DNA of 64,000 nt from Takakia lepidozioides (lineage: Eukaryota > Plantae > Bryophyta). The first letter of the stretch is position 1. Each line of letters starts with the position of its first letter. The notes below the pieces were generated by a model. It worked only from the letters and a program-made list of their open reading frames with translations, was not told the DNA's origin and made no database searches. A program made the translations under genes and the position numbers. Shown here piece after piece: positions 22,475 to 42,969 of the stretch. The stretch lies in the NCBI GenBank assembly GCA_030704615.1, contig CM060732.1, positions 38,316,001 to 38,380,000 on the forward strand. Direction: 5' to 3'.

Positions 22475-22994
22475 TGTCACGGACATAGCCCAGAGGAACT
22501 TACCAGGAGTAAATACCAGAAGTTACCAAGTTATTATATTATCAAAAGTTAACATAATTTACCGTGATTTACCATAAATTACCATTAGTTATCAAGTTAC
22601 CGGGAGTTTATCAAATTACTGAGAGTAACTTGGGAAACTGCTCAGGAAGCTTCCTTTGGAGGAAACTTCTCCATCAAGAAACCTCAATTAGGGAAGCTTC
22701 TTAGGGAACTTTCTAGTAGCCAGTATATATAGGAGGCAAGACTGGACACTCTTCAGTCTCGCCAACACAAGTTCAAGCTACTCTTGTTTGCAGTCCCAGT
22801 ACTCCAGTCCACCTTCCAGTATTCTAGTCCAGTTTCCAGTATCTGGTACTCCAGTCCAGTTTCCAGCATTTCAGTATTCCAGTCGAGTTGCAATATCTTG
22901 TACTCTTGTTCATTGTTATAAAGATTATCTTGATTCATGTTTATCCATCATGTATTCGGCCACGCCGACCTTGACTTCTTGTCTAGTCTTATAC
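22475..22994 (+). repeat. Chromovirus 3' LTR, first part
   Basis: Starts TGTCACGGAC just after the PPT; TATA-like TATATATA ~22724; CCAGT-rich repeats; interrupted after 22994. Confidence 0.8.
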
Positions 22995-24013
22995 CAGGGA
23001 TGCCTCGGCGTGAGCCTGGTCACGTGAGTGCAACTGCGCTCACGCCACGTCACCTTGCGCAAATGCCACGTCACGGGGCTCATTCCACGTCATCACACGT
23101 GAAGGCCGCGTCACCACGCGCCCAGAAAGAAGTGGAGTGTATTCCCGCGGATTGACACCCTTTACCGCGGAAACAAGCTGGACGACATAATAAAAGGCAT
23201 TGAATAAATGATGGATGAATATACAGTTGGATGATAAACAGATAGATGAGTGTGAAAAATGAATGTAGATGGATGAATGAGGGATGGATAAGAGTAAAAT
23301 GGATGAATGTATAATGGATGTTGAGCAATGACAAAAATTCATAACAGGAAGATGCATGACCAAAACTTTTGACGAATGCACAACGTATATGAAATGAGTG
23401 TGGAAGGTTTGTGGGGTGGATTAAAGAGTACATATGATGAATGTACAATGGATGTTGAACAAAGGAAAAAATTCATGAATGGAGCACGCATGAATACACT
23501 GTAGATGAATGCACAATGGATATGAGAAGAGTCAGGGAGGTTTGTGAGATGGATTCATACATATTGCAATTTAAATGAAAGTTGATTATGTGATTATTAT
23601 TTGTTCTAAAAGAACAACTACGGTGGAGGAAGGGGATTCAACGTTTTCCAGATAGTATGAAAATGAATATTAAAAGAATACAGTTCAGTCTGACTCAGAG
23701 TCAGTACAATGTATCCCCGCTTCCTCTGCATCTAAGTCTAAGTATTTTAGAACACCGGATCCACGCTGGATACACCTACGGCTGGCCACTAAAAAGTCAG
23801 GGGATAGGGACTCGGCCGCGTGACGTGCCATTGCTTTGGCATAAACAGGAAGCAGAAAATTGGAAAGGGGGCTATCGAAAATAGACTCGCCAGAAATGAC
23901 TGTATCTCCTGAAGATCCACCGTTGCCTTTCCTGAAAGACAGCCTGAAAAAGTTATTACTGTAACTTTGATGTTATTGAGAATTGAGTATGACTCCCAAA
24001 GAGGGTTTAACAC

Positions 24014-27000
24014 TTACTCACATGAAAAGTCGTTGTCGACCTGCTTATCTTCGGGATCGTCATCATTTCGAATTTGAATCCGATCAGTCTGTGTGCCTGA
24101 AGTGGAGCCAGACAAAAGGGGGGGGAGCACTATGTTGTAGAGGTCAGAATCACCCTCCATGCCAAAAAGGTTGAAAAAAAACCAATTCGGAAGGGAAAGA
24201 ACGAACCTGTGGACACAGAAAGATCGACCACCCGTGTAGAGCGGTGGCTGCATGACTCCAGCAGTATTTGCATGAACGCTGGGGACTTTTCATTTGCACC
24301 TCTCCAGGGAGTGTCATCTGGTCTCTTCAGAGTCTGACTGGATTGCATGAAGTTGTACAAAATGTCATCAACATGGGGCTCATAGGGGGGGTTGACGAAA
24401 CAACCCTGGTCAGAAATCTCAAAGCTGCGGATGGAGGATGGTGTCTTTGAGGTGCGAATCCTCCGCAGGCAGATCGCCTCGAACATCCTCGTCTGCCAAA
24501 GATAGCAGGTTAGTGTGGTAAACACAATCTATAGTGGAAGTGTGTACATCGGCTATTCAGAACTCAGACACAAAAAAATCATTTTTATCACGAATCGGTG
24601 ATGATCGGTGTCGATCATAACAGATTCTACTAGAGTGGAGCTGCAGAGAACATTGAAACTCATCATAAAAGCACAAGCAGAAGGGAGACGGCATACCAGC
24701 TGACCCCCGAAACCCCCTTTCACAAGGTAGAGGCTGTTCACACAATTTCATGTGCGCAAAACTTCAAACCCTGAAGACTTGAGGTATGATGCCAATGCCC
24801 GACGACTATCATTGTCACATGACTAAAAAAGCAGAAATGTCCCTGTATCAGAGAGGAAGTTATTACAGAACCCGAACACCCAACTCCAGTAGTTGTCCTC
24901 GAATTTGTTCCAGCCTGGCGTCTTGCCCTTTAGAAGAATTTCTGGCACAGCCTGGCCATCCGGGATGTCGATAATGACAATGTCGGCCGCATAAGTTTTC
25001 TGCACACCGCACACGAAGGTGAGACCTGTGCTCACCTGCAACAAACATGTTTTTTATAAGAACGAAAGCAAGAATGTTTTCAAAGAACGAGACTGAAATA
25101 CTGCCAACGAAACTTTCAGAGAAAAAGGAAAGAAACTGGAATTCTCACCAGATTGAGGAATGAGATTATATTGTCCCAGGTAGGCGATGGCACCCCAGTG
25201 TATCCTCTCTTTCGACTCTGCATCATTGACAGCCAACCCTCATTAACAATTTTCATCTCTCCTGCCGAATCAGAACGGGAAGGGTGTGGCTTGGCATCGA
25301 ACACGCACTGAACAGTGCGGGTATATCTTCCAGCAGTAAAGTCCTGCCCACTCTCCATCTCCTTTTCTTTCTCCTTCCTCTTGTCATTTTCCTTCTCTTT
25401 GGACTTGTCTTTGTCCTTTGGCTTTGCTAGTGAGATGGCTATGACATCAACAGCCTTGTCTTTTGGTTTGCGGCCCGCCTTCTTTCCCTTCTGCAGCGTT
25501 CCCTGAGCATCAGGCTCCTTGGCAGCCAATGTTGCTATGTTTCGTTGGTACTCTTCGTCAGTCAAAGGCGCCAGCGTCTCAGCGTTATTGTTCAAGTATT
25601 TCATATGCTGTTCTTGAAAGGTCGTGTGCTCCAGTGGGCAGTCAAGGTACCACCCACAGTCTCTGAAGTGAGAAGGACTCCAGTCCTTCAATATCCCTGC
25701 AGTATACATGGTTGGATCGTTTGCAGGGTCCGACCACATGTCAAGATAGTCTGGAATTCTGCTCAGGTGATTTCCTTCCATAAGCACATATTTCGTGTAC
25801 CTGAAAAAAGGAGATAAATCCCAACCCACAAAAGCGCTCAGTGAGTAAGATGCAAGTAGAACAGAATGAAAAAAACATAGATTGAAAAGGCTCTGAGAAC
25901 TGCTCCAAGGACCTTTCAAGACCACACGAATGCTCCAGATATGAATGTCGTCAACACCATTCAAAACATTCCATTCAATGATACTGTAAATACACCCTAA
26001 TCCAGGTGAATGCAAACTATCGTTTTGGAATGACACAGACATAGAAGTGAATGTCGTCAACAACATTCACTAATCAAGCCTAATTATTCCTCAAATGAAG
26101 CAAAATCACAGGATGGAAATCATAAACTCGAGTAAGGAACCCTCCAGGAAAACTCAATGCACATTCATAACGAACATATCACTGAGGACCTCACAACAAC
26201 ACTGTATGTGAATGGCGTCAATGCCATTCACAAAAATACCAACAAGGAACCAATTACTTAGTTCCCAATCCATGTAAATTCAAATTGTCGTTGTTGAATA
26301 ATACAGACACAGAAGTGAATGTCGTCAACGACATTCACTTTGGATTTCTCATAACAGAGCTTATCAAGCCTCCAGATTCCTCGCAAGAGGCAAAAACAAT
26401 GCAGAACAACTGAATGTCTGCATTGACATTCAGCAAAATGAAGTGAGGAACCCTCACTGTAACCTCTATGGACATTACAAAAATTTACATAACTCTGAGG
26501 ACCTCTCAACAACTCCGGATGTGAATGTCATCAACGCCATTCAAGGACATTATCAATTCTAATCAGGGACACTATAATTACACCCTTAGATCCTAACCAG
26601 GTGAATTCATATACTCGCTTAAGAATGACTCAGACAAATAAGTGAATGTCGTCAACGACATTCAATCTGGATCTATGATTGCAATCCTTATGAAGCCATA
26701 TTTTTTCCCAAAAAAAGCAGTAGAGTTTCAAGTATGACATTGCACCTGTATACAACTCGCATCATGGCCCACTCTCCTCCAACCTGACTGTCAAAGTCGT
26801 TGGACCGTAAAATGTTACCATCTTTGGAGAACTCCCGGAAAAAACAGTATCTCCAGGTGAGACCTCTCCACTTCCTTATGTATGCCTCCAATGACATTTG
26901 GGGAGGGGAAACAATCGAAATGTTCAGGTCCTTCAAAGTCTGATCCAGCACAATGACGGTGCGCTTTTCGAGCTGCAAATAGTATATTTGTCAGAATTGC

Positions 27001-27997
27001 AAATAAGATACTCATCACATACTGAAGAGAAGAAAACGGCATGTTTGAATACACACCTGACTCCAAAATGTAGCCTTGTGGAGCCAGTTATCAAACACCA
27101 AATCACTGATTCCTTCCACCTTTGTGCCAGGCGGTATGGTGCTCTTTGGGAACTGATTCAAGTCTTTTACTGTTTGATCTGAGTTCCATATCTCCAGCCA
27201 CCTTATTTTTGTTTGTGGGTCGACCATCGATATGGCCAGCCGGTGCAATTTCTCCTGCTGCATCTCCGGATGCACATGCTTGTCATAATGTGTTTTGATC
27301 TGCTGAAGGAACTCAGGACCAAGTCCAGGATCTACTATTCTAAGTTGCTTTCCGAAGGCGGACATCAATTTGGTTCTTCGCATTTCAAACTCCTTTTTTA
27401 TTGCAGCTTCCACACCCTTTGATGTCCTTAGTTCCTCTGGTGTAGTGCGGTAATATTCGGATTTTCCCTTCTCAGCTGCCTCTGCCAGTTCTTGCTGCAT
27501 TGATTCAAGTAGTGATTAGCTCCGAAGGGACTACAAACATGTATTCGAAAAGTAAACAGAGTACAGACTCGGGCTTACCGCATACATGTACTCCAGAAAC
27601 GCCTCTCGTGTCAAAGAATACCAAGTGCCTGCAGCTCTTCATGTTTCGCACTGCTTGATGATATTGGGTGGTAGTACTGTCCGAAAATCATCCAGCTTCA
27701 TCAGACCAATCCTCTGAATTCGGAATAGTGTGTGAACCAAGCTTGTTGTCACATGCGATTTCTCTGTCGATCTGTAAAAACATTGGAAACATTGCATTCC
27801 TTAACACTGTTTTTTGAGGATTAATAAGACACTACAGAGGGAATGAAATCTCCTGGATGACTTACTTGTTCACGTCGTGCATAGCTGTAAGAAGCCTAGC
27901 GATGTCGTTTCCAGGATCCAAAACCATTGCCTCCATAGCAACATGCTTGTCTTTGTCTTTCGCATGGTGTTTCTGAATGTATCCCATCCATGCCAGC
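24014..27997 (-). pseudogene. 3' exons of the element-borne gene ending in an N6-adenine/N4-cytosine DNA-methyltransferase-like domain (beta-class order)
   Basis: ADIVIIDIPD at the motif IV position (~24960-24990); PWRGANEKSPAFMQILLESCS (motif X-like); VVDLSVSTGS (motif I-like); LFGMEGDSDLY (motif II-like); GT-AG bounded exons; some stops and frameshifts. Confidence 0.65.
25942..26664. repeat. Array of six copies of a 22-bp palindrome TGAATGTCGT-CA-ACGACATTCA within a degenerate ~270-330-bp tandem unit
   Basis: Copies at 25942, 26048, 26209, 26316 (perfect 13-bp arms, 26313-26340), 26522 and 26643. Confidence 0.85.
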
Positions 27998-28692
27998 TGT
28001 CGTGCGCATACATATCGCTACACAACTACATCGTTGTCCAAAACCACACAACACATGTGCACACCACACACTAGTATACCACTAGTCTACCACTAGTCCA
28101 GCCACTAGTCCAACCACTAGGCTACAACTAGTCAGTCACTAGGCTGCCCACTATGGCAGTCACTAGTCCACACAATGATAAAGAAGAAGAATACAAGCAC
28201 AAGCTCATGCGAGCTCACAAAGCTGAAGCATAAACTCATGCATATATAACCTCATCACTCAAATACAAGTCAAGCCAAGTGCACCCCACGCCATGGGGAA
28301 TCCACACTACGGCGCCATAGCTAGGCGCGGTGAGGCTCAACTCGAGAAAGATGAGCCTCCCGCGCTTGCCGTGAAGATAACCACTCCAGGGCCTAAATCT
28401 GCCTTGACCCCTGGATTGACACTTGGGCCAATCCCAAATGTCAATATGTAAAAGCTAGCTATTTCCTAGCTAGTTTCACACTAGTGGTAAAATAACTTGA
28501 CAGCTGTCGTGCGCATACATATCGCTACACAACTACATCGCTGTCCAAAACCACACAACACATGTGCACACCACACACTAGTATACCACTAGTCTACCAC
28601 TAGTCCAGCCACTAGTCCAACCACTAGGCTACAACTAGTCAGTCACTAGGCTGCCACTACGCTGCCCACTATGGCAGTCACTAGTCCACACA
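27998..28692 (-). repeat. 3' LTR region of the DNMT-bearing Gypsy element, with a ~185-bp internal direct duplication
   Basis: Minus-strand PPT-like AGGGGGCGAT then TGTGTGG at 28692; ends CGACA at 27998; 27994-28176 nearly identical to 28501-28694; TATATA in the middle block. Confidence 0.7.
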
Positions 28693-28952
28693 ATCGCCCC
28701 CCTAGCTGCTGCTTAGGTCCCTCTAAGTCCAGGTAGCCACAAGATGTGATAGTGACCATAGCCTCACTAAGTCCTCCACCACTATCCCTACTACACTCAA
28801 ACTCGATAGATCAAGAGGCCGGGTGCAAGAGTTGCCCCATCGTTAGTCGCCGTCTTGCAACCTGTGAACTTGAGCTTGGGATCTCATGTATTGACTCCTA
28901 TGAGCTTGGCCTCCCATGTCTTGTTAGCTGCCTCCAGTCATGTCCACTGCCA

Positions 28953-30230
28953 CTATCCCAAGCAGTGTGGACACAACCAATCTCCGTCAGGAACCTTCTC
29001 AAGAGGTGGTGTCAAGCATCCCATATGCCAACCCCTTGAGCACCGATCACACACCAGCATGGTGGCTGCCCCTTTGGCAGACCCACAGAGCATGCACCTC
29101 AAACCTGCAGGTACCACTGCCAAGTTTGGGTCAACTCTGCCATCGACATTGGGAAGGTGACATGGCGCACAATTACGCACATGGTCTTTCCAAGTCATGC
29201 CATCCCGACCCTCTAAGATCAGGACCCCTGAGGGCAACACCTCTCGAACCCTCAGAATAACACGCCCTGCAGTAATATCCAGAGTCGTAGGAGCAGTCTG
29301 CTGCAAATAAACATAGTCACCAGGGCTAAACCTCCGAACCCCATGACGATATCCTCCACCACGTATAGTGGCATACCTCAACGTATCACGGTGCTGTGCA
29401 ATGGCAAGGTTCTCAAAAGCCATGGGCATGACTTTCTTGAACAACTCTGCACGCTGATCACATGCACGTACCCACACGTCCGGATCGTCAAGGTTAAGGA
29501 CTTGAGCAGTGTCCCTACGAATGGCTGCAGGCAAATCCGGCTCTCGGCCAAAGAGAAGGAAATATGGTGAGAAGGAGGCAAGTGATGCTTGTTTGCTGAA
29601 CCTGTAGCCCATGGCTAACCAAGGAACCTGAAGATCCCAATCTCCTAGGTGTCCCTTCTGCAAGCCATACTTGCGCAAACCCCTCTTCACCGTCTGAACA
29701 ACTCTCTCTGCTAAGCCATCGGCCTCAGGATGATCCGAGAAGTGGTGCGGTGGTCTATCAAGGCTTTATCACACAAAGCCTGAAACTCCCCCAAGAACTC
29801 TCTCCCTTGGTCCGTGAGTACCTCAGCTGGAGCACCAAATCGGCTAAGCACACGATCCAAGAATGCATACGCAGCCCCCTCACTAGCCTTGTCAGGCAAT
29901 GGAACCAACTCAATCCACTTGGAGAAGTGCTCCACCATCACCAACACATATCTGTGGTGGCGCATAGTCAGTGGCAACGGTCCTGCGAAGTCAAGACTCC
30001 ATCTGTAGCCCAATCCCATGATAGGTAAAGGATGCAACTGTGGTGTAGGGGCGTTAAATGAAGCACGCACCCTGTCACACACCATGCACCTAGCCACAAA
30101 CTGTTGCACCTCTGTATGCATACCACACCACCAATACTGCCCCTGCAGTAAACTGTGAGTGCGTCGCACTCCAAAATGCCCCAACTCCTCATGGGCATGC
30201 CGCACTAACCGTGCACGCTGTACAGTGCTG
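28953..30230 (-). CDS. Integrase with C-terminal PHD finger
   Basis: HAHEELGHFG..CMVC; SLDFAGP, VLTDQGREF; C4HC3 pattern CMLC..CDRC..H..C..WLCPHC at ~28955-29105. Confidence 0.9.
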
Positions 30231-30599
30231 GCAGGCAGTGGGTGTGTTGCTGAATGGAGGAGGAGGGGCTAGATATGAAGCACAATACTCACCCGACCAT
30301 CCTCCCACACTCGAAGTAGGTGTATCCCCTCCCACTTGAACCTCTTGGCTCGTTGCAGGATCCGATCCCTCTCCCTGGCAGTCACAATGGCTGCCGTGTC
30401 TCCCGTGCGGAGGTAGTCCAACACAGCCGAATCCTCATGTATATCTCTGGCACCACCTAGCTCATCACTAGCCTCAGGGTCCTCAGACACTCCGTCTACA
30501 GTCATCCCTGTTGTAGGTCCAATCTGACCTCCCGATGCCAAGATACACAAAAATGCAGATGCGTGCCATCCCGGCACCATCTCCTCGTCCGTCTCACCA

Positions 30600-32030
30600 T
30601 GCCACCGAGCTCCAGTGTCATCCTGCTGGCTCATGCATGGATTGCGACTCAATCCATCCGCATCCCGATTGACCAAACCCGGTCGATGCACAACCTGAAA
30701 GTCATACTCCTGGAGTATAAAGTGCCCACCGTGCAAGCTTCCCCGTAAGCTTGTCTGACTCCATCAACCACTTGAGTGGCTGGTGATCCGTGACAAGGGT
30801 GAAAAGATTGCCGTATAGATAGCACCTGAAGTGTGCCACGGCCCACACTGCAGCTAAGCACTCTCCCTCATATGAGCTGTACTTAGCCTCTGCAGCGTTG
30901 TTCGAGCGGCTAGCGTAAGCCACTACGAACTCTCTTCCCTCATCATCCACCTGTGTGAGCACCGCTCCAAGCCCCAGCATGCTCCAATCCGTATGCAGCT
31001 GAAAGGGACGCCCCCTGATAGGTCGTCTCAAGATAGGCGCCGAGGTCAACCTCGCCTTGAGCTCTTGAAAAGCTCGTTCCTGCTCATCTTCCCACTGCCA
31101 CTCCTGGTCCACCTTGGTCAGCTTGGTTAGAGCCTTTGCAATGGTACTAAATCCCTTGACAAACCGTCTATAATAGTTTGCCAACCCCATGAAAGCTCGA
31201 ACTCGGCTCACATCCGTGGGGCGTGGAATTTGTGCAATGGCCTCTACCTTAGTCTGCTGTACCCCCAATCCTCCAGGATATATCATGTGACCCAGATACT
31301 CAATCTGGTTGTGGAAAAACTTGCACTTCCCCGGATGCAACTTCAATCCGTGCGCTCTCAAGCGCTCCAATACCACCTGAAGGTGTCTCTCATGCTCCTC
31401 CATCGTAACACTAAAGATGATGATGTCATCTATGTAGCACCGAGCAAAGTCCACCCCTGCTAGAATCCTATCCATGACTCTCTGAAACTCTGCAGGAGCA
31501 TTCTTAAGCCCAAATGGTAAGAACCGCCACTGATATAGGCAATCCTTGCCGTGCTCATTGATCCCCAGAATGCCGTCTTCTGCTTGTCCGCCTCCTTGAT
31601 TGGCAACTGGTGATATCCGGATCGTAAATCCAAAGTGCTAAAGGCCTTAGCATGCCCGATGGCATCAAAGATCTCCTCTGGTGTTGGCATGGCATACTTA
31701 TCGGACTTGGTCTGACGATTTACAGGCCGGTAATCACCGCACATACGTCTCTCCGTCCAATTGCCATAGACATCCTTCTTGGCTGGCATCACTGTGGCTG
31801 AAGCATACTCTCCACCAGAGAGCTCCACCAAACCTGCCTCCCAGAGATCTTGAGTCCTCATCTGAATCAAAGACCTCTCCATGTCACTGTATCTATAGGG
31901 TCTCCGAAAGATTGGCGTGTCAGTGGCCAACTCAATACGGATCTCTTGACCCTTCAGTGCTCCCAAGTCCTTCAAACTGAAGGCAAAGCAATTCCTGTAA
32001 GCCCTCAGGAACCGCCGTATACGTCGTCTC
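30600..32030 (-). CDS. Reverse transcriptase and RNase H, frameshifted
   Basis: RMCGDYRPVN, FSTLDLRSGYHQL, PFGLKNAP, CYIDDIIIFS, YLGH, FMGLANYYRRFV, LHTDWS, VTDHQPLKWL. Confidence 0.95.
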
Positions 32031-32439
32031 TCTCCTCCGGTGACAATGGGTCCAATGTCAGGCTCCCAATTGTCCTCCGTAACTACAACCTTAAGTCCAG
32101 TGGGCTTAGAGGTAGAGGACGCGTCCCGTGGTTGCTATGCTGCAACCTCTTGAGCAGTACTCCTACCTGCTCAGTCAATGACAAGGCATCATCCTGCCCC
32201 ATCATCTCATCCTTGAGGACCTCCTCAACTCGAGAAGAATCCCCAACCTCATCCATCACAGCCGCCTTGGCTGCCAACTCCCTCTGAACTCGAGCACCTC
32301 CCACGTGTGCCATGGATGCATGCACCCCGTGGTCCTCATATGCTCGCCCCACTCACTGCCTGTACCGTCTCGGTAGGCAGAGAGACCATTGAGGGAAGTG
32401 TATTCCGCACTCTGCGTTGCTCAGCTAGAGCCAAGCTGA

Positions 32440-33400
32440 TAATCCAGGTCAAGCAATTGAGATCCATTGCTTGCCCCAACACTTGACGACGTGATGCCTC
32501 AGAAAGAGACGACACCGCCGTGGTACCAGTGGTAAAACCCATTGCCCGCTCACGCTCGTCAGCATTAGGCTCCACTAACTGCTGCAACTGAGCATCCCAC
32601 AGGAGGCCAGGTCCACTATCCCGGAAAGCATGCGATCCTGGGAAGCTGAGCAGTGTAGGTAATGCTGCTCGTGGTTGACCCACCTTGTTGACCACTGCCA
32701 AAGGCGAACGGTCATCGTGTCTCACACGTTGAGACTGCCTCCCTGTGTCCAGAATGTTATCCACTGTGAGATGTGCTGGCCGCTGCACCCCATCAAATGC
32801 ACGCTTGAGCAGTGCGGGTGGCATCATGTTAGTCCACCATAGCCGTGGACGATGAGCCCGTGACCCCACTGTAGCTGCATCTAGCAACACTGCTGACCCA
32901 AGCCACGACCGGACTTGATGCACACTGGCCATCACCCTGGCCCGAGAATCGCCCATCAGTGGCACATTCTCCAAGATGTATGCTGGAGATACAGCTTGAT
33001 GAAGCTGCAAGTGGCGCAAAACCCGCACCATCTCCCAAAACAGACCCGACCTCGAGTCTCGCAATCCATTGCCATGCCCGGCTGATGAATGCCCTTGGCA
33101 GGGCCAACCTGCCACTACCAGATCAATGGAGCCAACCCGCTCCAAATCCTGCGCCCCAGCAACGAAATGTCTGCTGGCAAGGCCTGCTGATATCCACGAA
33201 TTGCAGACACCGACAACAACTCAGGGTACCGCTGCACCAACTGAGCAACATGGCGAAGTGAAACGCGTCGTGCAGTCTCATCCCTCTCCACATACAGGTA
33301 ACGCCGAACTCGTACACCTGCCTGTAACACAGCAGCCAATCCGGTGCTGATCCCGCCAAACAAGTCCAGAAGACAAATGCCTTCATCCGGATACTGCCAC
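32440..33400 (-). CDS. C5 cytosine DNA methyltransferase domain, DNMT3-like, inside the retrotransposon polyprotein
   Basis: Motif I LLDLFGGISTG; II YVERD; IV VAGWPCQG (catalytic PC); VI ILENV; VIII RPRLWWTN; IX ERERAMGF..GTT; X RRQVLGQAM; one frameshift near 33150. Confidence 0.93.
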
Positions 33401-33779
33401 ACAATAGGTGTGGTGTCCAATGGAGACAATTGAGGTGGTCCTGGTGCAATCCCCACACTCTCCTCCTCTCCTGACGGTACAAAAGCCTCCACCCAGGCTT
33501 GTTGCACCCGTCGATCAGCATCCCGCTGCAAATCCTTGCTCGTGCCCCACAATGGAGTCTGAGCAACCATGGTAGGCAACTCCGCCATACCATACATGTC
33601 ATCCTGCTCTCCCGGAGGTGGTACATCCTCCTCAAGCAACTCTCTAGGCCAACTCACTGCCGCTGTGAATGCTGCTAGTGTCGGCATCTTGCCTCGCTGG
33701 GCAACCGCAACTCCTCCTATGAACGTCACAGGGAGCTGCACACGCCGGCCCTCCCCTGACTGCCATGCAGGCCTATAGG

Positions 33780-34095
33780 AAGCTGACTCCTCCCAAAAAT
33801 CCAGGGTGAAGCCCATGGGGTACAACACTGCCCCACCAACCAGGACATCGTATGAGACTGCGTCTGTCACAATGGCCTTGGCTCGCATCACTGAGCCATC
33901 TGTAGGGTGATCCGGCCGTAGTCTGATAGCCAACTCATGCCGTGTCATGCCCCGAGCCTGCTCCGATCCTCCAGAGACGTCTGTATCTGGAAAGGACAAG
34001 GCTCCATATCCGCCTCCGTGAGGCCCAAGCCTGCAATAGCAGCTCTGCCCAGCATCAGTGGCTGAGCTCCCGAGTCCAACAAGACCGCAGTGCCA
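33780..34095 (-). CDS. Retroviral-type aspartic protease
   Basis: VLLDSGAQPLMLG (~34050-34085) and YDVLVGGAVLYPMGFTLDF; frameshift between them. Confidence 0.8.
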
Positions 34096-34849
34096 GTGGC
34101 CGGTACCTCTTGCCTGCCGGTCCACTCAAACAGAAAATGCCATCCTGGTTGTCTAACATGACAACTCCAGGTGTCACCATGGCGCGCTCAATGGCTGGCC
34201 TAGCTGGCAGCTCCATCAACCTGGCAGCTGCAGCTTGCCATGGCGCCGCCGTGGCAGTCTTGACCCTCAAATCCGAGGATCCCTCCGGCACTACACCTCC
34301 CACTATCTCCGCAGAAGATGAAGTAACCTCCCCACTCTCACAGAGTGTAGCTGCCAGCCTGAACACCTCAGCTGGTCTTACCCCCGGCGTCGCAATCATG
34401 GTAGCCGAGAACAATGGAGCCTGGCACACAGATGTGGCCGCTCCTAGCAGCACACTAGCTGCCGTAGCCTTGGCAACACTAGGTAGTGGTGCTACCCGTG
34501 TAGCTCTCCCCAATGGCATAGTAACCTCCGCCTCGGTAACAGTCGGGCGAGAACTAGGTGCCATGGATGGCGTCGACACTGTCTCCGCCAATGTGAATGA
34601 CTGAGGAAGCCTAGCCTGACGGCTTGCCTCCCCACGCTGTGGATCCAACTCCACCTCTGCACCTCGTGGCTCAGGAACTCGTGCTGCTCCTCGAGTCACG
34701 GCTGCAGCAGACTCCACCTGCACTAGTGGTAGTGCTGCTCCACACATGAATCCCATGCCTCCCATATCTCCTCCCTCAGGAGCAGGAGGTGGACCATCCG
34801 CCTTAGAGCCGGTACCACCTGAGCTGTAGCCATGGCAGCGAGCCTCTGC

Positions 34850-36255
34850 TCTAGCTGCTGAAGCCGGTTGGCCATGCCTTGGTCAACACCCTGACCTCCG
34901 CGTCCTTGGCCACGTTGAGCTTGCCTTGGCCTGCACCTCGTGGCTGGCCACCTCGTCCTCTCTGGGCTGCTCCACCTCGCCCCCGGCCACCATTGTTCCC
35001 TTGGAACTGGCCTGGGCGCAACTCAGGATGCAAAACCATAACACTGAGCCTCTCCATGCCCGTGTTTGCCACAATGCCAACACTAAACTGTGCAGGCTGT
35101 GCATGTGCCGGCCCTTTGCCTCCCTCTGGACAATCCTTTTGACATGGGGTCCTCCACATGTCCAGCACACCACATCCGCCCGTTGTTGGCCAGCAAATGA
35201 AGGAGAGACCCCTGCATCTGAGGTCCTCTCTGCCCTTCCTGAGCTTCACTGAGCCCCCTTGTTGCCTTGAGCACGTTGAGGTAGTGGTTGGCTAGGAGCA
35301 CCACTACCCCGTGGTGTCTCCTTAGCAAATCCCACCATGACCACTCGTTCCTCCACCATGTTGAGCTCTATCCGCTCTGCAGCAAAAACACATTTGCTAA
35401 GGTGGGTGGGGCCGCTTGTAGGAGAGTTGCATCCCGCACCCTTCTCCTCAGCTCCTTGTCCAATATCCCATACCAGAATTGGACTGCCTGAGCTTCCGTA
35501 ACCCTTGGGTTACATTTATCAAGCGCCTCATGCGAGTGAAAGCCTCCCTCAAGCTCTCGGTCGGCTTCCGTTGGAACTCTTGCAAGCTCCGCAACTTCTC
35601 TGTCCTCACCCCTTGGTAGTTCCCTCTCAACTCTTCGAAAGAACTCCACAACAGGGTTGAAGGCAGGCACGGGTGCTAGTGCTGGTGCGGTAGTGGCTTG
35701 GGTGGACGTCGTAGCTATGTGTACCACCAGTCCCAATGTGGCTTGCTGAAGCTCCGGTGCAGCGGCAGGGGTGTAGCCACTGCCCTCGTGGCTCTAGTGC
35801 CCCTAGTGATGGAGACATAGTCGGGTGACCAGTACTCTCCACTCCTCGATCTCAACCTCATGCCCCCGCTGAACTCATGGTAATCATCATAGGCGGCCCC
35901 TCAAGGTGTGCTGAAACAGCCCCTTCCATGCCATGAAAGGCGTAAATAGTTGTGGATTGCGCATTGCTGCAAATCACACCAAACTATCAAACTCTTGGAT
36001 AAAATCATCCAACTCGATGGTGCCCACCGCCCAGAGTATCTTCGTGGCCCCTTGGTAGCTCCATACATCTCCCTCCATTGTGCCCAAACAATGGCAAAGA
36101 AACAACGCACCGCCGGTATGAGTCCTCCGATTCACAATCCGAATCAGAACCATTCCGTAGAAGACACCAGGAGGTGAAGGGGGCCCTAACCCGCACACCT
36201 CGTCTCGTGTACCCACTAGTATCGCTAGTGCTCGAACCGGCACTGTCCCCAGCAA
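34850..36255 (-). CDS. Gag (capsid-like plus two CCHC-type knuckles), frameshifted
   Basis: ELDDFIQEFD; KLRSLQEFQRKPTESLREAFTRMRRLI; CWTCGGPH..DCP and CWHCGKHGHGEAQC; RG-rich tail. Confidence 0.78.
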
Positions 36256-36989
36256 CTAGTGGCACCTACGTGTGACACTTCAACCGGTCCAGAAACATGT
36301 CCCTACCCCCTCTTCACAAGGTAACCGGGAGAGAACTGTTGCGGCTTATGGTTTGGAATACTAAGTTTCCTAACATAGCCACACATGTACCTGCATCCAC
36401 CACAAGCACTCCTATGGTTGGCTGGTCATCACCTCCCACCTCACCACAGAGAAACAATGATGGTCTGGCTGGTCATCACCCCAGCCTCACCATCGACAGA
36501 TGCTCATAGCGAGCTGGCCGGTGATCAAATCGGACCATACCTATGCAAGGAAAGCCCAAGCGACTCACCACACAAACTAGCACGAGGAGGCTAACAGTCA
36601 AGCATGCAGGTATGGAGGGGATCCAAACACAAGAAATCAGATCGACAACTCCCCCACACCAAAAACAACTCCACGGTGTTGCTCCTGCAAGGACACCCCA
36701 GCCCAAAACCCGGACTGACTCTTGCCTCCACCTACGGAAAGGTCTTGGCCTAATGAGAGGGTGGAAACTACGAGGAAGAGAAGCTAAAGCAATGCCTAAC
36801 CCCAGCATGCTCTCATCCCAACACTCTGCCTCTCCTCTACCCTCACTTGCATGACCATGGGAATATCATGAAGATACTCCTCAAACCGCCCTCCACGAGC
36901 TTCAAATTCGGCCTTCCAGACCACATGCCAGTCCTTAGGCAGTCCACCAGTGCCTCCACGAGTCAGCACAGGCCGTCCACAGGTCAACA

Positions 36990-38385
36990 CGGGCCACCAC
37001 AGACCAGCACAGGCCCACACAGCTCACTGGTCACAGCCGTCACAGTCCCACAGGCCACTGGGCACAGCCTGTCGCAGCCCTCATCACAGCCTCAAAGGCC
37101 TCAGGCACGGTCACAGCCCTCACAGCCCCTCACAGCCCCAAAGGCCACACGGCCTGTCACAGCCCCTCACAGCCCTCACAGCCCCAAAGGCCTCAGGCAC
37201 GGCCTGTCACAGCCCCTCACAGCCTCAAAGGCCTCACGGCCTGTCACAGCAGCCCGTCACAGCCCCAAAGGCCATGTCACAGCCCCTCACAGCCCGTCAC
37301 AGCCCCAAGGCCTCAGGCACGGCCTGTCACAGCCCCTCACAGCCCCTCACAGCCCCAAAGGCCAGGCACGGCCTGTCACAGCCCCTCACAGCCCGTGTCA
37401 CAGCCCCTCACAGCCGTCACAGCCTCATGGCACAGCCTGTCACAGGTCACATCACAGCCTGTCATCACAGCCCGTCACAGCCTCAAAGGCCTAGGCACGG
37501 CCTGTCACAGCCCTCACAGCCCGTCACAGCCCCAAAGGCCAGGGCACAGCCCCTGGGCACACAGCCCGTCACAGCCCCTCACAGCCCGTCACAGCCCAGG
37601 GCACAGGGCACAGCCTCACAGCCCTCACAGCCCGTCACAGCCCCAAAGGCAGGCACGGCCTGTCAAGCCCTCACAGCCCGTCACAGCCTCAAAGCCTCAG
37701 GCACGGCCTGTCACAGCCTCACAGCCCGTCAAAGGCCTCAGGCACGGCTGTCACAGCCCCTCAGCCCGTCACAGCCCCAAAGGCCATGGGCACGGCCTGT
37801 CACAGCCCACAGCCCACAGGCCTCAGGGCACAGCCTGTCACAACAGCCCGTCACAGCCCCAAGGCCACTGGGCACAGCCTGTCACAGCCTGTCACAGCCC
37901 ATCCCTTGTGTCACAGCCCGTCACAGCCCGTCACAGCTCCACAGGGCACAGGGCACAGCCTGTCAGCCCATCACAGCTTGCCACAGCCGCCCCACAGGCC
38001 ACTGGGCACAGCCTGTCACAGCCGTCACAGCTCGCCACAGCCTGACACAGCCGTTCACAGCCCTCACAGCCCGTCACAGCCCCAAGGCCAGCCTGTCACA
38101 GCCCCTCACAGCCGTCACAGCCTCAAAGGCCTCAGGCAGTCACAGCCCTCACAGCCCGTCACAGCCTCAAAGGCAGGCAGGCCTGTCACAGCCGTCACAC
38201 GGCCTGTCACAGCCCCTCACAGCCTCACAGGCCTCAGGCACGGCCTGTCACAGCTGTCATAGCCCGTCATAGCCCAAAGGCCATGGGCACAGCCGGTCAC
38301 AGCCCTCACAGCTCGCCACAGCCTGACACAGCCCGTCACAGCTTGCCACAGCCCGTCATAGCTTGCCACAGCCTGTCACAGCCCC
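36990..38385. repeat. ~1.4-kb minisatellite built on TCACAGCC(C/T) units in the retroelement leader
   Basis: Dense reiteration of cacagccc / gtcacagcc / aaaggcctcaggcacggcct with a loose ~50-65-bp higher-order unit. Confidence 0.95.
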
Positions 38386-38609
38386 ACACATGGCCGCTCT
38401 GGCAGTTTAGCCATTTCTCCAAGGGGTTTAGCCACGCCAAGCTAGGGTTTTGTCTCTTGGACTCTAGGCTTCTTTCCACCAAGCTATGGTGGCTGTGAGG
38501 AAATCAGCAAGGTATCCTTGCTCTTTCGGCTCCCACACACCACCATAGTAGCCCTAAGTCATGAGGTGGTTGCCACAAACCAAGCCTTCTTTCTCACTTA
38601 GCCTCCCCA

Positions 38610-38958
38610 AACACGCTTCTCCCATTTATATCCGTCAGTGACACATAAAAAACTTGTGCATCAAGTCTATATCCATGCACAAAATCACTCTCCAATTTGT
38701 TACGTTATGGGAAAGAGGTGGACGCACAACAGGCATTGATATCATCCGGCACAGAGGGATGTCCAGACGCCCTCCAGATACGAGCATGTCCCTTATAACA
38801 TCCTGAGAGTTTACCTTCTGGAATGACATGAGTTCTTTCACCTTGTCAAGGTAGTGCACTTCATATTCATCTGCTTCATCTGTATTCTCTGAGCTTTTTC
38901 CGGACTCGTCCCCATCTCCAGATCCTTTTCCCTCTGATCTTGTTGAGGTCACCATCAC
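38610..38958 (-). pseudogene. Exon with N-terminal half of a ParB/Srx-like domain, belonging to the methyltransferase-like gene
   Basis: RLDIPLCRMISMPVVRPPL, then FYVSLTD in a shifted frame; coding resumes at 27997 with LAWMGYI..MVLDP..LLTAMHDVN; the expected GxHR core is missing at the insertion junction. Confidence 0.5.
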
Positions 38959-39619
38959 TCTGTCTCAAAGAAACTCACTATGAATGGTGTGAAACAATTC
39001 AACACAATCTACACAAGCAAAGCTGATACTGCCGTATTCAAAACAAAAGCGAGAGCGATAGCGAACGGCGGTAACGACAATCACAAAAGATAACGACCTG
39101 CCGGATCGGTGTTGTGTAATGACATCTATGTGTAAATGATTGGCGGCAACGACATTCGGTATAGTTTAGGGCGGACAGTAAGTGCAGATTATTCAGATTG
39201 ACTCCACTGTGATTACCGTCGCCAGCATGAAGGACTGCTTGAAAGGCAATCAGACAGACTGTATGATCTGAACAACGATGATTGACGGTATGCCGACCCT
39301 CACTCTCTCTTCAAACACATAGGTACATAAATCTCATGAGGAGAATCGAATGGCGTTAACGACGCTCGCAATTCAGTAGTTCCTGCTAAAGAAGGGAAGA
39401 GGAAGGACTCCTTGAAAGGCAATCAGATAGACTGTATGATCTGAACAACAGTGAATGACTGTACCGATAGTCACCCACTCATTGTGCGGTAAACCCTTAG
39501 CAGAGGAGTAGAAAGCAAATCACATTTGTGATGGTCGGGTAGCGACAATCCCTGTCTGGGACATTCCACTCAATCTCTACGCATATCTTCAACAATGAAA
39601 TGTAAGTTAGATAAAACTT

Positions 39620-39920
39620 ACTGGCGCCTTCTTAGGTTTTGAAATTGGATCCCCTTCTGCAGCTTTCCTCTTCCCTCTCACATCTGCTGGAATTTGTGTC
39701 TGCTCTAAGGTTTCTGGACCTTCTCCCGGTTCGGCGTTCCGCGTGCTTCCACCTTCTTCAGTGTCCTTGTGAATCATCTCTGCATCCACAGGCTGGCGCA
39801 CTCTTATCGCCGATTGTGTCACAGCCGCTGCCTCAGTCTCCGTCTGCTCTTCTGAATCAGTCTCCGCGTTCACCTGCTGCTTTGGCCCTATGTTCTCCAA
39901 CAAACGACGCCTCATCATTT
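39620..39920 (-). CDS. Probable upstream acidic/basic exon of the element gene, with NLS-like sequence
   Basis: Open frame MMRRRLLENIG..KRKAAEG..KPKKAP ending at a GTAAGT donor; linkage to the next exon not established. Confidence 0.4.
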
Positions 39921-40773
39921 GCTCTCTTGCTCTGCGTCTCTTTCTAAGGGAAGTAAAATAAAGAGACTTTCTTCTCTTTCGTATTGTAGAAGGAACCCTC
40001 TCCAGCTTGACTACCACTCTCTCTCTAAGCGCGAAAAGTAGAAAAACGCAGTGACTCCCGATTTCTTGCGGGATTGCCTGCGTTCTTGCGTTTCTCTAGA
40101 AGCATCGGATTTCCTCTCGCGTGACCGTTACACATAGTCGTTCCCTTATTAGTGCACATGCCAGCAATTGGTGTACAGCTGTTCGTATTCAGTTATGGAT
40201 GTCTGACGTGTGTCGCCCAAAATAAACGGCGTGTTCTTTATTAGAACGGTTTCAATATTTAAAAATAACAGCGAATCCCAGAAATCTTGGCGCACAATTT
40301 TACACAAATAAATGTAAATGAACGAGAGTTTGATGACAAATCTTGGAATATCATACACGGTCATCCTTGTTAGCCAAACCCCACATTCGTTTCACATTTG
40401 GAACTTTCCAGGTGCGCATGATCATTGGTAGTAGTATAAAGATACATTTACTTAATCTGCAATCCCATCCTCAGATCCTGTGGCATGCTTCCAGGAAGTC
40501 GGCTTTGTTATTGGGTTTATTGATGAGGTTCTGGTTAACGGTTTAACAGCTGCCGACATTGCTCCTAGGGATACTCTGACCACGGGCCCACAAGAAAAGT
40601 AATTAAAATGGACGGCTGCATATCTGGAAAGAATAACATAATATGCATAGTCGTTGTCTGAGCTTCCTCCGCCATATTCTCTGCTCATTCTTCAACTGTG
40701 TTCTGGAGACATCAGTAAACCGATTTACTCTAGATTTGCGATAGCAAGGTACAAACGTACGCGAGGAAGGAAG

Positions 40774-42351
40774 ATGGCTTCCTCTGAAGCGGAGTTCTTC
40801 TCTGACGACAAACTAGTGCCGTTCTCCCAGGAAGTCCTTGACAATGGATTTGCAATTGTTCTGGAACATGTCTTGGCTACCCGTTTTCAGCTGCAGAATG
40901 GTTCCATCTTTTTGGAGAAAGAGGTGTACGATCGTAAAGGGAAGTTGTTGAAATACTCTTTCCAAAACCGTGATGAGACGGCTCATATCAGCCAGTGGAG
41001 AGTGCGTCCTGGTCGATACAGAGTACTTGGAGAGCCTCGGCGAAAGTCCCTTGGGTCATATGTGACGCCCAGGACTGCTGCTTCGGTCGTTGAAGACAAG
41101 AGGGAGGTGGTGGTGAAAAAAGAACAGATGTCCTCCACTCCAATCGTTGAGCTTTCGGATTCTTCCGATGATGACATAAGTGAAATTCCAAATCCAGTCC
41201 TTCCTACTGTGGTTGGAGAAGCTGATGAAGAAGAGATTTGTAGTGTCATTCCAAAATTGCGGGCTGAAGAAGAGATTCGGCTCCTGTAAGAGGAAATTGA
41301 ACACTCCACCTGGTTCGGATTCAGATTCCCACAGGGCAGACCGTGATAACTCCTCGAAGCCTCGTGTTCCCCTGCATGACAGCTCCATGTCCGGAACCTC
41401 CATTGTGGAGGAACCTCCAACATGACGGCAAGCTCCAGCATCAAATAGTGCCACTGAAATGGTGCAGGAGAGAAACAACCCCCTTGATGTGCTTGAGTCC
41501 GCATGCCCCGACCACGTTTGGCACATAGAACGCACAAGTGTAGGGTCTCGTGTGAAATGTACAGCGATCAGGGCAACTAATTTCGAGAAGTGCACTTCAT
41601 CTATATCCAGAGGTGGTGCCCGAACTCCTGCTCCAACTTTCACGGGCTTGATGCGTCCATACGGTCAACCAGAAGCCAAGAACCACAAGTTCTGGTTCTG
41701 CGCAGATAATTGTGCCAGATGTGTGTATGGAACTGTGCGTCCTTCCGTAGTGATGAAGCCATCCTCCTCAACCGTTTGGCCCGTGAAGGTGGGAACACAT
41801 CTCAGCTTTCAGGAGATTGAAATGCTGGAGGAGGCAGGTTTTTTTCCTTGCGATACAACCCCAACTCCATGCATGTGCTACTAATCTGCGTCCTCCCGGG
41901 TCCCCCGGCAAATCCTGACTTGTGGCCAACCAAACGAGATGGAAAGCTCGTTCGGCGTTTCCCTCCAACCGCTGAACACTTTGGGAAAGTGGAGTCCGCA
42001 AGAATGCTCCAAGCTCGTGTTGGAAACACCACGGAAGTACCCGATCCAGGATATGGTCGGGTATTCACAATCATCACTTCCACATCTGCTGTTCATGACA
42101 TGACCTACGACATCACGGTTTCCAATTTCCCCAATTGCACATGTTCTGATTTTGTGAATATGCTATCAACCAGTTTGGGCAAGAAAGGTAAATTCATACC
42201 CTGCAAACATTTGTATTTCATATTTTTGAAGAGGATGGTTTGCGATCCCAAACGTGACAACTTCATTCACCAGGCCACTATGAGTTTCAACGAGGTCGAT
42301 ACTCTTTTGCAGCGGGATACAAACATGGGTAGCATCAACTATGCAATGTGA
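40774..42351 (+). CDS. Element-borne SWIM zinc-finger protein with upstream Cys-rich domain (split into three ORFs)
   Basis: YDITVSNFPNCTCSDF..IPCKHLYFIF (CxC..CxH); upstream WHI..KC..KC..FWFC..C..C..WPV; ORFs 40654-41289, 41459-41884, 41848-42351. Confidence 0.75.
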
Positions 42352-42920
42352 TATGTGGACGACCATGATTTGAAATGTGTAATTCACATCAATTTGTCGG
42401 CGGTGCAATGATATGGCCTCCAACTATACGGAGTGAGCTCTGAGTGACAACTTTTAGGTAGTGCACATTTGTCATTGCACCGTTCGAAGTCTACATGTCT
42501 TGCTGTCGCTATGCACTACAATCATCTTTTGAAGATGATCCTAACTCTCATTGTTATTTGAGGAGGGAGGAAGGTCTTCCCGTGGTAGCCTTTATGGCGC
42601 ACACTTTGTGAGGATATTTTTTCGTCCTCGTAATTGTAAAAGTGAAACAAGCTTTTGTAATTGCACAATGTTGGATGCTGCAATTGTTGGCCTCAACGCT
42701 CGTCTTGATTCTATTTAGGCAAGATTCCCTGCATTAATTCCACGGTCATAGGACCATCCACGGTTATAGGCGGCGCATGTTAATGCTGACGTGGCAGATG
42801 ACGGACAGTGCCACGTTATCATTTACAGCCACATCAGCATGCTGACATGACGCTCACGCCACGTCAGCTGGCGTGAGCGTACGCTCGCGCGCTCACGCCA
42901 TTGCGTCGTTGGTCTTATAC

Positions 42921-42969
42921 CTCTAGTCTGATCTCTTGTTTGTGTTCAGTCAAGTTCTCGTCCTTGACA
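42921..42969 (+). repeat. Chromovirus 3' LTR, terminal remainder
   Basis: Ends GTCCTTGACA, a 9/10 inverted match to the LTR start TGTCACGGAC at 22475; follows the duplicated GTCTTATAC. Confidence 0.8.

Follow-up and report, generated by a model that had tools for sequence, protein, structure and literature searches.

A decayed copy of a probable cut-and-paste transposon with ParB-like and methyltransferase-like coding sequence in Takakia lepidozioides

In a 64-kb stretch of Takakia lepidozioides DNA (the window, to which all coordinates refer), we examined an insert at 22995–42911 that lies between two copies of the word GTCTTATAC and measures 19,917 bp, assuming a 9-bp duplication. The insert carries two divergent genes, a large one on the minus strand with ParB-like and methyltransferase-like regions and a smaller one on the plus strand with a SWIM-type motif, and a retroelement is nested within the former; we refer to the element minus this retroelement as its host parts. 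Our preferred explanation, which we consider probable, is that the insert is one decayed member of a multi-copy family of cut-and-paste transposons with a 9-bp duplication, that it has no recognizable transposase and that it was likely moved in trans. An empty site, a boundary that recurs in contigs of other runs and repeated motifs at the two ends bear on the insertion itself, while the assignment of the coding sequence comes largely through relatives found in other assemblies.

Boundaries, empty site and termini

The insertion was compared with public-read contigs from four runs (X1, X5, X8 and X11), aligned over window positions 22500–42499. X1 is the best-matching run, X5 is labelled as a plant metagenome, and X5, X8 and X11 come from other studies than X1; contigs from X8 and X11, which may be RNA runs, were used solely as evidence of other copies. 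The features that delimit the element are as follows.

22986–22994, unstranded: left copy of the target-site duplication, GTCTTATAC; the C at 22995 may belong to the duplication or to the element
22995–23135, plus strand: left terminus, a 21-nt imperfect terminal inverted repeat (TIR; CAGGGATGCC...GGCGTGAGC) with three subterminal CCACGTCA and two GGCGTGAGC (motif counts, alignment of the ends, boundary in X8 and X11)
42772–42911, minus strand: right terminus, a 21-nt imperfect TIR (reverse complement CAACGACGCAATGGCGTGAGC) with two subterminal CCACGTCA and three GGCGTGAGC (motif counts, alignment of the ends)
42912–42920, unstranded: right copy of the target-site duplication, GTCTTATAC (word match; the loose ends of the empty-site contigs correspond to 42922–42951)

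Both sides of the insert share GTCTTATAC and the following base, C, which sets a maximum of 10 bp for the duplication (22986–22994(5) and 42912–42920(1)). The duplication is 9 bp long, with 10 bp possible, and a length of 9 bp yields symmetric ends, the insert beginning with CA and ending with TG. Four X5 contigs follow the left flank to 22995 and then continue with 30 letters identical to 42922–42951 (agreement 0.97), such that they carry GTCTTATAC once and are missing the insert. The original prediction of a mobile DNA element bounded by a 9-bp duplication, which had named an empty site as something to look for, is thus borne out by the flanking word and these four contigs, with 10 bp as the alternative length.

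Evidence for further copies comes from the other runs. One X8 contig matches the element from 22995 inward and is preceded by a different flank, and the match of an X11 contig likewise starts at 22995, from which it follows that the left end is common to at least one other copy and has a sharp boundary. Sharing of the termini among copies is therefore borne out for the left end. At variant sites in the host parts, 8–47 distinct X1 contigs carry an alternative base, which implies a multi-copy family. The DNA at the insertion site (22500–22995 and 42922 onward) is itself repetitive, with 20- and 27-bp tandem repeats at 22796–22905 and 19–82 X1 contigs at variant sites. The element therefore sits within another repeat family, and since this flank is multi-copy, the X5 empty site may be orthologous or paralogous.

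The two ends agree at 15/21 terminal bases, including the 9-mer GGCGTGAGC, and beyond these 21 nt they have motifs in common but do not align. All five matches to GGCGTGAGC in the 64-kb window fall within 60 bp of the ends (0.29 matches expected), as do 5/7 matches to CCACGTCA within 125 bp (1.43 expected in the window; 0/100 shuffles reach 7). The short imperfect TIRs and subterminal repeats that had been described for this element are thus confirmed by the shared bases and by the concentration of both motifs at the ends. No clusters of the terminal motifs were found in the 26 loci searched for them.

The two divergent genes

Without the nested insert, the host element is about 9.3 kb long and contains one gene on each strand, in keeping with the predicted net length of about 9 kb and two divergent genes. 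The region between the genes and the minus-strand gene comprise the following features, listed in the direction of the latter; relatives from metagenome loci are denoted by L numbers.

39919–40773, unstranded: region between the divergent genes, a presumed bidirectional promoter (gene models)
39622–39918, minus strand: possible first exon, Met-Met-Arg-Arg.., basic and acidic (candidate only)
38965–39918, minus strand: intron-like stretch with two weaker palindrome copies (39133–39157 and 39343–39367) and a 62-nt direct repeat (splice-site reading)
38638–38964, minus strand: upstream ParB-like exon, ..IPLCRMISMPVVRPP..WRVILCMDIDL.. (54% identity to L003 over a 26-residue IPLCR..VRP block)
27990–38630 (approximate), minus strand: Ty3/gypsy-like retroelement insert, about 10.6 kb (gag-like region, C5 DNA methylase, reverse transcriptase (RT), RNase H, integrase, PHD finger)
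26733–27999, minus strand: exons conserved in relatives, at about 26733–26924, 27018–27515, 27573–27775 (one in-frame TGA) and 27865–27999
25938–26663, unstranded: seven copies of a 20–25-nt palindrome with core GAATGTCGT-CA-ACGACATTC, 95–161 bp apart, inside an intron of the minus-strand gene
25119–25850, minus strand: middle exon with a conserved ..CGWYLDC.. block and a Lys/Glu-rich linker (tblastn/tblastx collinearity with L001, L003, L004, L006–L009, L011–L014, L020 and L021)
23688–25053, minus strand: 3' half of the gene, a beta-class methyltransferase-like domain with four in-frame stops (alignments of relatives)
24700–25053, minus strand: N-half of the methylase-like domain, with DIVIIDIPDG at the motif-IV position (alignment with relatives)
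24208–24496, minus strand: exon PWRGANEK..FMQILLE..RVVDLSVSTG, motif X and motif I (alignment with relatives)
24170, minus strand: break, with the first part of the next exon missing (read contigs of other copies)
about 24017–24170, minus strand: remnant exon
23688–23972, minus strand: last exon, which matches a separate final exon of the relatives

The splice phase of the candidate first exon does not match that of the next exon.

An exhaustive phmmer search with exon 24130–24528 returned 53 relatives at E<=1e-3, all of them short, unnamed, exon-like open reading frames (ORFs) from ENA, Logan and JGI assemblies; among them, P0037 is matched by the window exon at E 2.4e-4. A metagenome scan with a small family alignment gave 24 loci. 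When the window exons are compared with these by tblastn, L003 displays seven successive collinear exon blocks within 3.1 kb, with four to five in each of L001, L020 and L021, which indicates that the whole gene, encoding roughly 1000 aa, is a conserved unit. Diverged paralogues (72–99% identity) co-occur within the same samples. At four loci (L004, L006, L007 and L008), the methylase-like gene lies between an array of an 85-bp tandem repeat (at least 10 copies, ahead of the gene) and an inverted array of the same unit (at least 14 copies, behind it); these arrays could be long, repeat-built terminal or binding arrays. No similarity at the DNA level was detected between the window element and the metagenome loci, and no relative was found in a metagenome scan with exon 27015–27515. 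No annotated full-length protein that includes the minus-strand exons emerged when a collection of 5.8 billion proteins was searched by word index, and tblastn of two window exons against phages gave no match.

As judged from its relatives' sequences, the C-terminal half of the gene, in the part predicted to bind S-adenosylmethionine (SAM), is related to the beta-class N6/N4 DNA methyltransferases, because several kinds of comparison with these relatives lead to the same class. The Pfam family PF01555 (N6_N4_Mtase) is matched by 11/53 relatives, always at profile positions 159–221; the best match, P0037, has an E-value of 7.6e-6 and scores 26.5 bits, below the gathering cut-off of 26.7, and the window exons give no match to this family. 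P0037 also matches 22 methyltransferase models of PADLOC (best MTase_II, E 8.7e-8), and 10/13 of its weak tblastn matches in phages lie on annotated DNA methylase genes. A 10-sequence family alignment compared by hhalign with two phage methylases reaches a probability of 78% and an E-value of 1.8e-5 over motifs X-I-III, and the top four matches of the family profile in the PDB are to DpnA and M.RsrI (E 0.6–0.7). The structural matches are weak: an AlphaFold2 model of P0037 (55 sequences) has a mean predicted local distance difference test score (pLDDT) of 61, and when it was compared by VIA-align with 48,161 chains, three matches had Z>=2 (Z 2.0–2.6), two of which are CcrM (Z 2.6) and a rotifer N4-cytosine (N4C) methylase (Z 2.0). 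Foldseek found nothing in the PDB with the same model, and the read-through methylase-like region of the window, modelled by AlphaFold2 without an alignment, was unusable (pLDDT 34).

The window family shares with beta-class enzymes such as M.RsrI, DpnA and CcrM the permuted order in which the motif-IV position comes before motifs X and I. A conserved block in the aligned relatives reads PWRGAREK..FMQ.LIE....G..V.DL.ASTG, and the stretch ..REK..FMQ.LIE....G..VvDL.AsTG.. aligns with ..TQKP..L...I.....G..VLDPF.GSG.. of the beta class. The differences from the beta class are D[IV]P[ED], a motif I in which the glycines are partly replaced, scores below the Pfam threshold and an N-half that profiles do not detect. 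At the motif-IV position, where the beta class has ..DLIFADPPY.., the window reads DIVIIDIPDG and relatives read DLLFADVPEN or DLVIADIPEG; the canonical (D/N/S)PP(Y/F/W) is thus replaced by DIPDG in the window, and the 11 relatives aligned here have DIPEG, DVPEN or DLPKG. This non-canonical D[IV]PE makes classical N6-adenine (N6A) or N4C methylation doubtful. An NPPY at 24388–24399 had been a candidate catalytic motif, but it is conserved in none of 23 aligned relatives and is therefore due to chance. We likewise rejected a reading of the last exon as methylase motifs I–III, as this exon instead matches the separate final exon of the relatives. The predicted methyltransferase fold accordingly holds, through relatives, for the C-terminal half, while the NPPY motif drops out of the argument.

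The ParB-like region is read from L003, which has ..IPLCRLLSIPLVRP.. followed by ..WVWDGNHRLQAW.., that is, the IPLCR..VRP block and then DGNHR, a classical DGxHR signature. The window keeps the first of these blocks, and past the nested insert it resumes with the sequence that immediately follows the second: the exon at 27865–27999 (..LAWMGYIQKHH..) corresponds to the part of L003 just after DGxHR. Searches for ParB with the window exons or L003 in Pfam, PHROGs, NCBIfam, PADLOC, the Atlas feature search and the word search gave no match. The ParB-like label of the original prediction therefore keeps the motif pair in L003 behind it and gains no profile, word or feature match. A pattern search for the palindrome found 10 matches at 8 sites, with 0 expected.

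This copy of the element is dead, having in-frame stops, a small deletion that affects the methylase-like gene and a retroelement within its ParB-like region. At one of the stops, relatives have Trp; at another, they have His or Leu. Over the whole aligned stretch, the differences from the window to the other X1 copies comprise 118 A>G and 111 T>C, as opposed to 74 G>A and 79 C>T; this bias and the stop at a Trp codon fit decay by deamination of methylated cytosines. We also considered whether the break at 24170 might be a large deletion that conceals a transposase. Relatives carry one short exon after motif I (..GGSIIACRSIQRHIVALESD..), and other copies of the family read into that exon at 24170, so the break is a small deletion with no hidden transposase.

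The plus-strand gene is predicted to have three exons.

40774–42351, plus strand: whole gene, about 489 aa (gene model)
40774–41285, plus strand: exon 1
41335–41837, plus strand: exon 2, Cys-rich, with one in-frame TGA at 41423
about 41900–42351, plus strand: exon 3, with a SWIM-type CxC..CxH at 42136–42206

The C-terminus of its product has the SWIM signature C-T-C..(20)..C-K-H, which Pfam PF04434 matches at E 0.022 and 14.8 bits, compared to a cut-off of 19.6. An Atlas search with this protein placed 19/30 matches in SWIM-bearing clusters, with scores around 0.91. The SWIM finger proposed earlier thus has the expected CxC...CxH sequence and a Pfam score that stays below threshold. We recognized no catalytic core in this protein, for which the PDB and family libraries returned nothing, and a scan of viral contigs with the SWIM exon gave no match.

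A six-frame search of the host parts against Pfam (E<=1) revealed no transposase domain, the sole match being the weak, sub-threshold SWIM. Among the domains absent from the six frames of this copy are MULE (PF10551), DBD_Tnp_Mut and Transposase_mut, as well as the BED finger and the hAT C-terminal dimerization domain. For this copy, the earlier statement that there is no recognizable transposase is therefore correct. Comparison of the window's own exons with Pfam, PHROGs, NCBIfam and PADLOC yielded nothing but the weak SWIM, and sequence searches of the PDB with single exons yielded no meaningful match.

The nested retroelement and the surrounding sequence

The nested insert splits the ParB-like region of the host gene into two halves. 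Its coding part lies at 28953–35793 on the minus strand, where a C5 methylase (PF00145) is found between a gag/protease-like part and the RT and a PHD finger follows the integrase. The RT, RNase H and integrase are in Ty3 order on one strand and in one block with the C5 methylase, and the integrase has a zinc-binding domain (RVT_1, E 7e-25; RT_RNaseH, 1e-33; rve, 5e-14; DNA_methylase, 9e-13; PHD, 4e-11). Summed over contigs, the depth of the retroelement exceeds that of the host parts two- to threefold, and the retroelement is the more abundant of the two elements in both X1 and X5.

Self-BLAST found no pair of long terminal repeats (LTRs) in the nested element. The retroelement carries a 158-nt repeat (99% identity) at its low-coordinate end, in two copies 507 bp apart (27991–28148 and 28498–28655); this repeat lacks a counterpart at the other end, and hence there is no recognizable LTR pair. 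GCATGGAT is a candidate 8-bp duplication of the retroelement, but its two copies occupy separate stretches of the reading frame of the host gene, and the conservation with L003 extends past the first copy, so that the limits of the insert remain approximate. At 37110–38384, the nested insert contains about 128 copies of a 10-bp satellite, GTCACAGCCC, with higher-order periods of 49–143; X1 contigs skip 802 or 1312 satellite bases, and the array length therefore varies among copies. Retrotransposons that carry DNA methyltransferases (DNMTs) are described in passages of PMC5890265 for dinoflagellates and the charophyte Klebsormidium nitens. At the present locus, two unrelated mobile elements with methylase-type genes are found one within the other.

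Elsewhere in the window, we observe an intronless gene at 6990–9845 on the minus strand that encodes a 952-aa PLS-type pentatricopeptide repeat (PPR) protein with an E motif (E 6.6e-20); internal repeats of about 300–410 bp in its DNA (75–81% identity) are the PPR blocks. The window also contains a DUF4378/VARLMGL gene and a lectin-domain ORF. GT..AG introns mark the sequence as eukaryotic, and these genes together with the PPR gene indicate a plant, most likely one of the land plants. A short minus-strand ORF at 15076–15507 has a weak match to PIF1-like helicases (E 4.7e-4) in an AT-rich stretch (32–37% GC) and is possibly, from this match, a Helitron remnant.

Origin of the element and comparison with known systems

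By the length of the duplication alone, the transposase that moved the element was probably of the Mutator type. A 9-bp duplication is within the range of Mutator-like elements (8–11 bp), with GTCTTATAC(C) on both sides and a single copy in the empty site, and Mutator is to our knowledge the only plant superfamily with 9-bp duplications. Plant Mutator-like elements (MULEs), including Pack-MULEs and VANDAL, have the same duplication length and commonly give rise to gene-carrying, non-autonomous derivatives; their MURA-type transposases end in a SWIM finger, while the window has an isolated weak SWIM and no MULE domain. They differ in their termini, as those of the window element start with CA and have imperfect TIRs of about 21 nt, with 15/21 bases matching, in place of the about 100–200 bp of classical Mutator-like elements. 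Non-TIR MULEs exist, however, and short TIRs thus do not exclude the Mutator superfamily. To hAT elements of the Ac/Ds type, the likeness is in the short TIRs, the short subterminal repeats and the terminal pentamers, CAGGG and CAACG, which would fit YARNG, and the first eight terminal bases may resemble the Ac terminus. The window differs from hAT in having a duplication of 9 (or 10) bp rather than 8 and no BED or hAT dimerization domain; an 8-bp reading of the shared word would also spoil the symmetry of the ends.

For such an element, we propose that a DDE transposase encoded elsewhere would bind the GGCGTGAGC and CCACGTCA clusters at both ends and move the element. The large minus-strand protein (roughly 1000 aa) would use a ParB/Srx-like N-terminal domain to bind the palindrome arrays that lie in the introns of its gene, and its methyltransferase-like domain would target the DNA or chromatin of the element itself. 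With D[IV]PE in place of DPPY, classical methylation of adenine or cytosine may be beyond this domain. The SWIM protein could be a second accessory factor that binds DNA or protein.

Several observations weigh against this explanation. Mobilization in trans is taken as likely from a single copy, with no autonomous partner in evidence, and of the two ends, the left is the one seen in another copy. Most Mutator-like elements have far longer TIRs, and the ends of the window element, CAGGG and CAACG, presumably fit the hAT pattern YARNG better than they do typical Mutator ends. On the side of the coding sequence, Pfam, PHROGs, NCBIfam and PADLOC offer no methylase or ParB model that the window's own exons match, comparisons by PDB profile and hhalign yield no methylase match for the N-half of the methylase-like domain, and the catalytic motif D[IV]P[ED][GN] is conserved but non-canonical. 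The ParB-like assignment draws on motifs in a single relative, L003, and that the palindromes would be bound by this putative domain is inferred.

Other explanations in which the element is truly mobile were weighed against a decayed copy moved in trans. If the element were a Pack-type non-autonomous transposon, its two genes would be captured host genes, passengers without a role for the element. Gene capture is common in plant Mutator-like elements, and the genes of this copy are broken; yet there are many diverged paralogues per sample, some flanked by inverted tandem-repeat arrays, as is typical of element-borne genes, the word-index searches revealed no full-length annotated protein with these exons, the palindrome arrays lie inside the gene's own introns, and similar genes are element-borne in algae. 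We consider this explanation fairly unlikely. It is distinctly unlikely that the element is autonomous and belongs to a new superfamily, with either the ParB/Srx-like (nuclease-type) and methylase-like protein or the SWIM protein as a new transposase. Such autonomy would agree with the absence of any known transposase domain from the six frames, with a multi-copy family that has both genes within its termini and with the retention of the large gene in many paralogues of other genomes, as expected if the element needs it. ParB-fold domains include nucleases, and ParB is among the nuclease domains listed in passages of Iyer et al. (PMC4738411). Against autonomy, a staggered 9-bp duplication with short TIRs is the signature of a DDE transposase, the ParB and methylase genes of algae sit beside a normal transposase in the systems described in parts of two reports (PMC12477816; 10.1101/2025.02.11.637652), and the SWIM protein, at about 489 aa, is too small for a known catalytic core; the loci of the relatives are too short to reveal other cargo of related elements. 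In a further reading, which we regard as very unlikely, the ParB/Srx-fold and methyltransferase-like protein, aided by the SWIM protein, would be a recombinase that recognizes the GGCGTGAGC/CCACGTCA ends and the palindromes, and the family would have no DDE transposase; if true, this would constitute a new superfamily of eukaryotic cut-and-paste elements in land plants.

That there is no transposon at all, and that a direct repeat and terminal similarity have arisen by chance in ordinary repeat-rich intergenic DNA, is hardly credible. The TIRs are indeed short and imperfect (15/21), but the empty site has exactly one GTCTTATAC, the boundary at 22995 is sharp in another contig, and both motifs cluster at the two ends far more than shuffling would predict. 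Barring an assembly artefact in the empty-site contigs, the empty site refutes this reading.

The closest parallels in the literature are algal. Passages of Dinatale et al. (2025, PMC12477816) describe Sola1-1_Ec32, a 21.5-kb Sola1 element of Ectocarpus with a gene for a 1104-aa ParB-like and N4C/N6A methylase protein on the strand opposite the transposase. As in the minus-strand gene of the window, the protein is large (1104 aa versus about 1000 aa), with an N-terminal part of ParB type (putative in the window) and a C-terminal amino-methyltransferase-type part, and its gene lies inside a large DNA transposon, divergent from another gene, with a product proposed to bind and modify its own element. 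This likeness is drawn from the published description. The systems differ in that a Sola1 transposase is present there and none is recognizable here, in the host (a brown alga versus a plant) and in the D[IV]PE of the window family. A 9-bp duplication, moreover, presumably does not fit Sola1.

In giant Plavaka elements of red algae, parts of Petroll et al. (2025, bioRxiv 10.1101/2025.02.11.637652) report PAG2/PAG3 genes for a ParB-2-oxoglutarate (2OG)-oxygenase and an N6-methylase-SET protein, inverted-repeat arrays that adjoin the ParB gene, homologues in Chondrus Mutator elements, and ParB and N6-methylase accessory genes in red-algal Mutator, Zisupton and Fanzor elements as well. The window element resembles these in its putative ParB-type and its N6-methylase-type accessory functions and in its inverted-repeat arrays, and such genes pass between superfamilies, Mutator included. 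In Plavaka, however, there are two genes (ParB-2OG oxygenase; methylase-SET), whereas here a single gene seems to combine both parts; the Plavaka elements also have a DDE transposase. Plavaka duplications are 2–3 bp long (CACTA-type). Fusions of ParB and helix-turn-helix (HTH) domains to Dam-type methylases in chlorophytes and chytrids are described in passages of Iyer et al. (PMC4738411).

Full-text literature searching found no land-plant report of transposon-borne ParB and methylase genes. Given the algal ParB and methylase accessory genes, this kind of element is already known, and the original prediction of an uncharacterized family is to be narrowed: the family, its host lineage and its superfamily assignment are undescribed, while the kind is familiar from 2025 reports on transposons of brown and red algae (PMC12477816; 10.1101/2025.02.11.637652). 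What appears new, when set against the published descriptions of the algal systems, is the host lineage, the architecture of a single ParB-like and methylase-like gene with D[IV]PE, the SWIM companion and the transposase-less copy.

Transposons equipped with genes of their own for modifying DNA or chromatin are rare, and they bear directly on the ways in which mobile DNA evades silencing by the host or turns it to use. Here, such a module is found in a high-copy element with an empty site, and candidate binding arrays lie in its own introns. The conserved, non-canonical catalytic motif suggests that the protein either has a new activity or serves purely to bind DNA. Should an autonomous partner come to light, one could test in this family, in a tractable way, whether a plant transposon directs epigenetic modification of itself.

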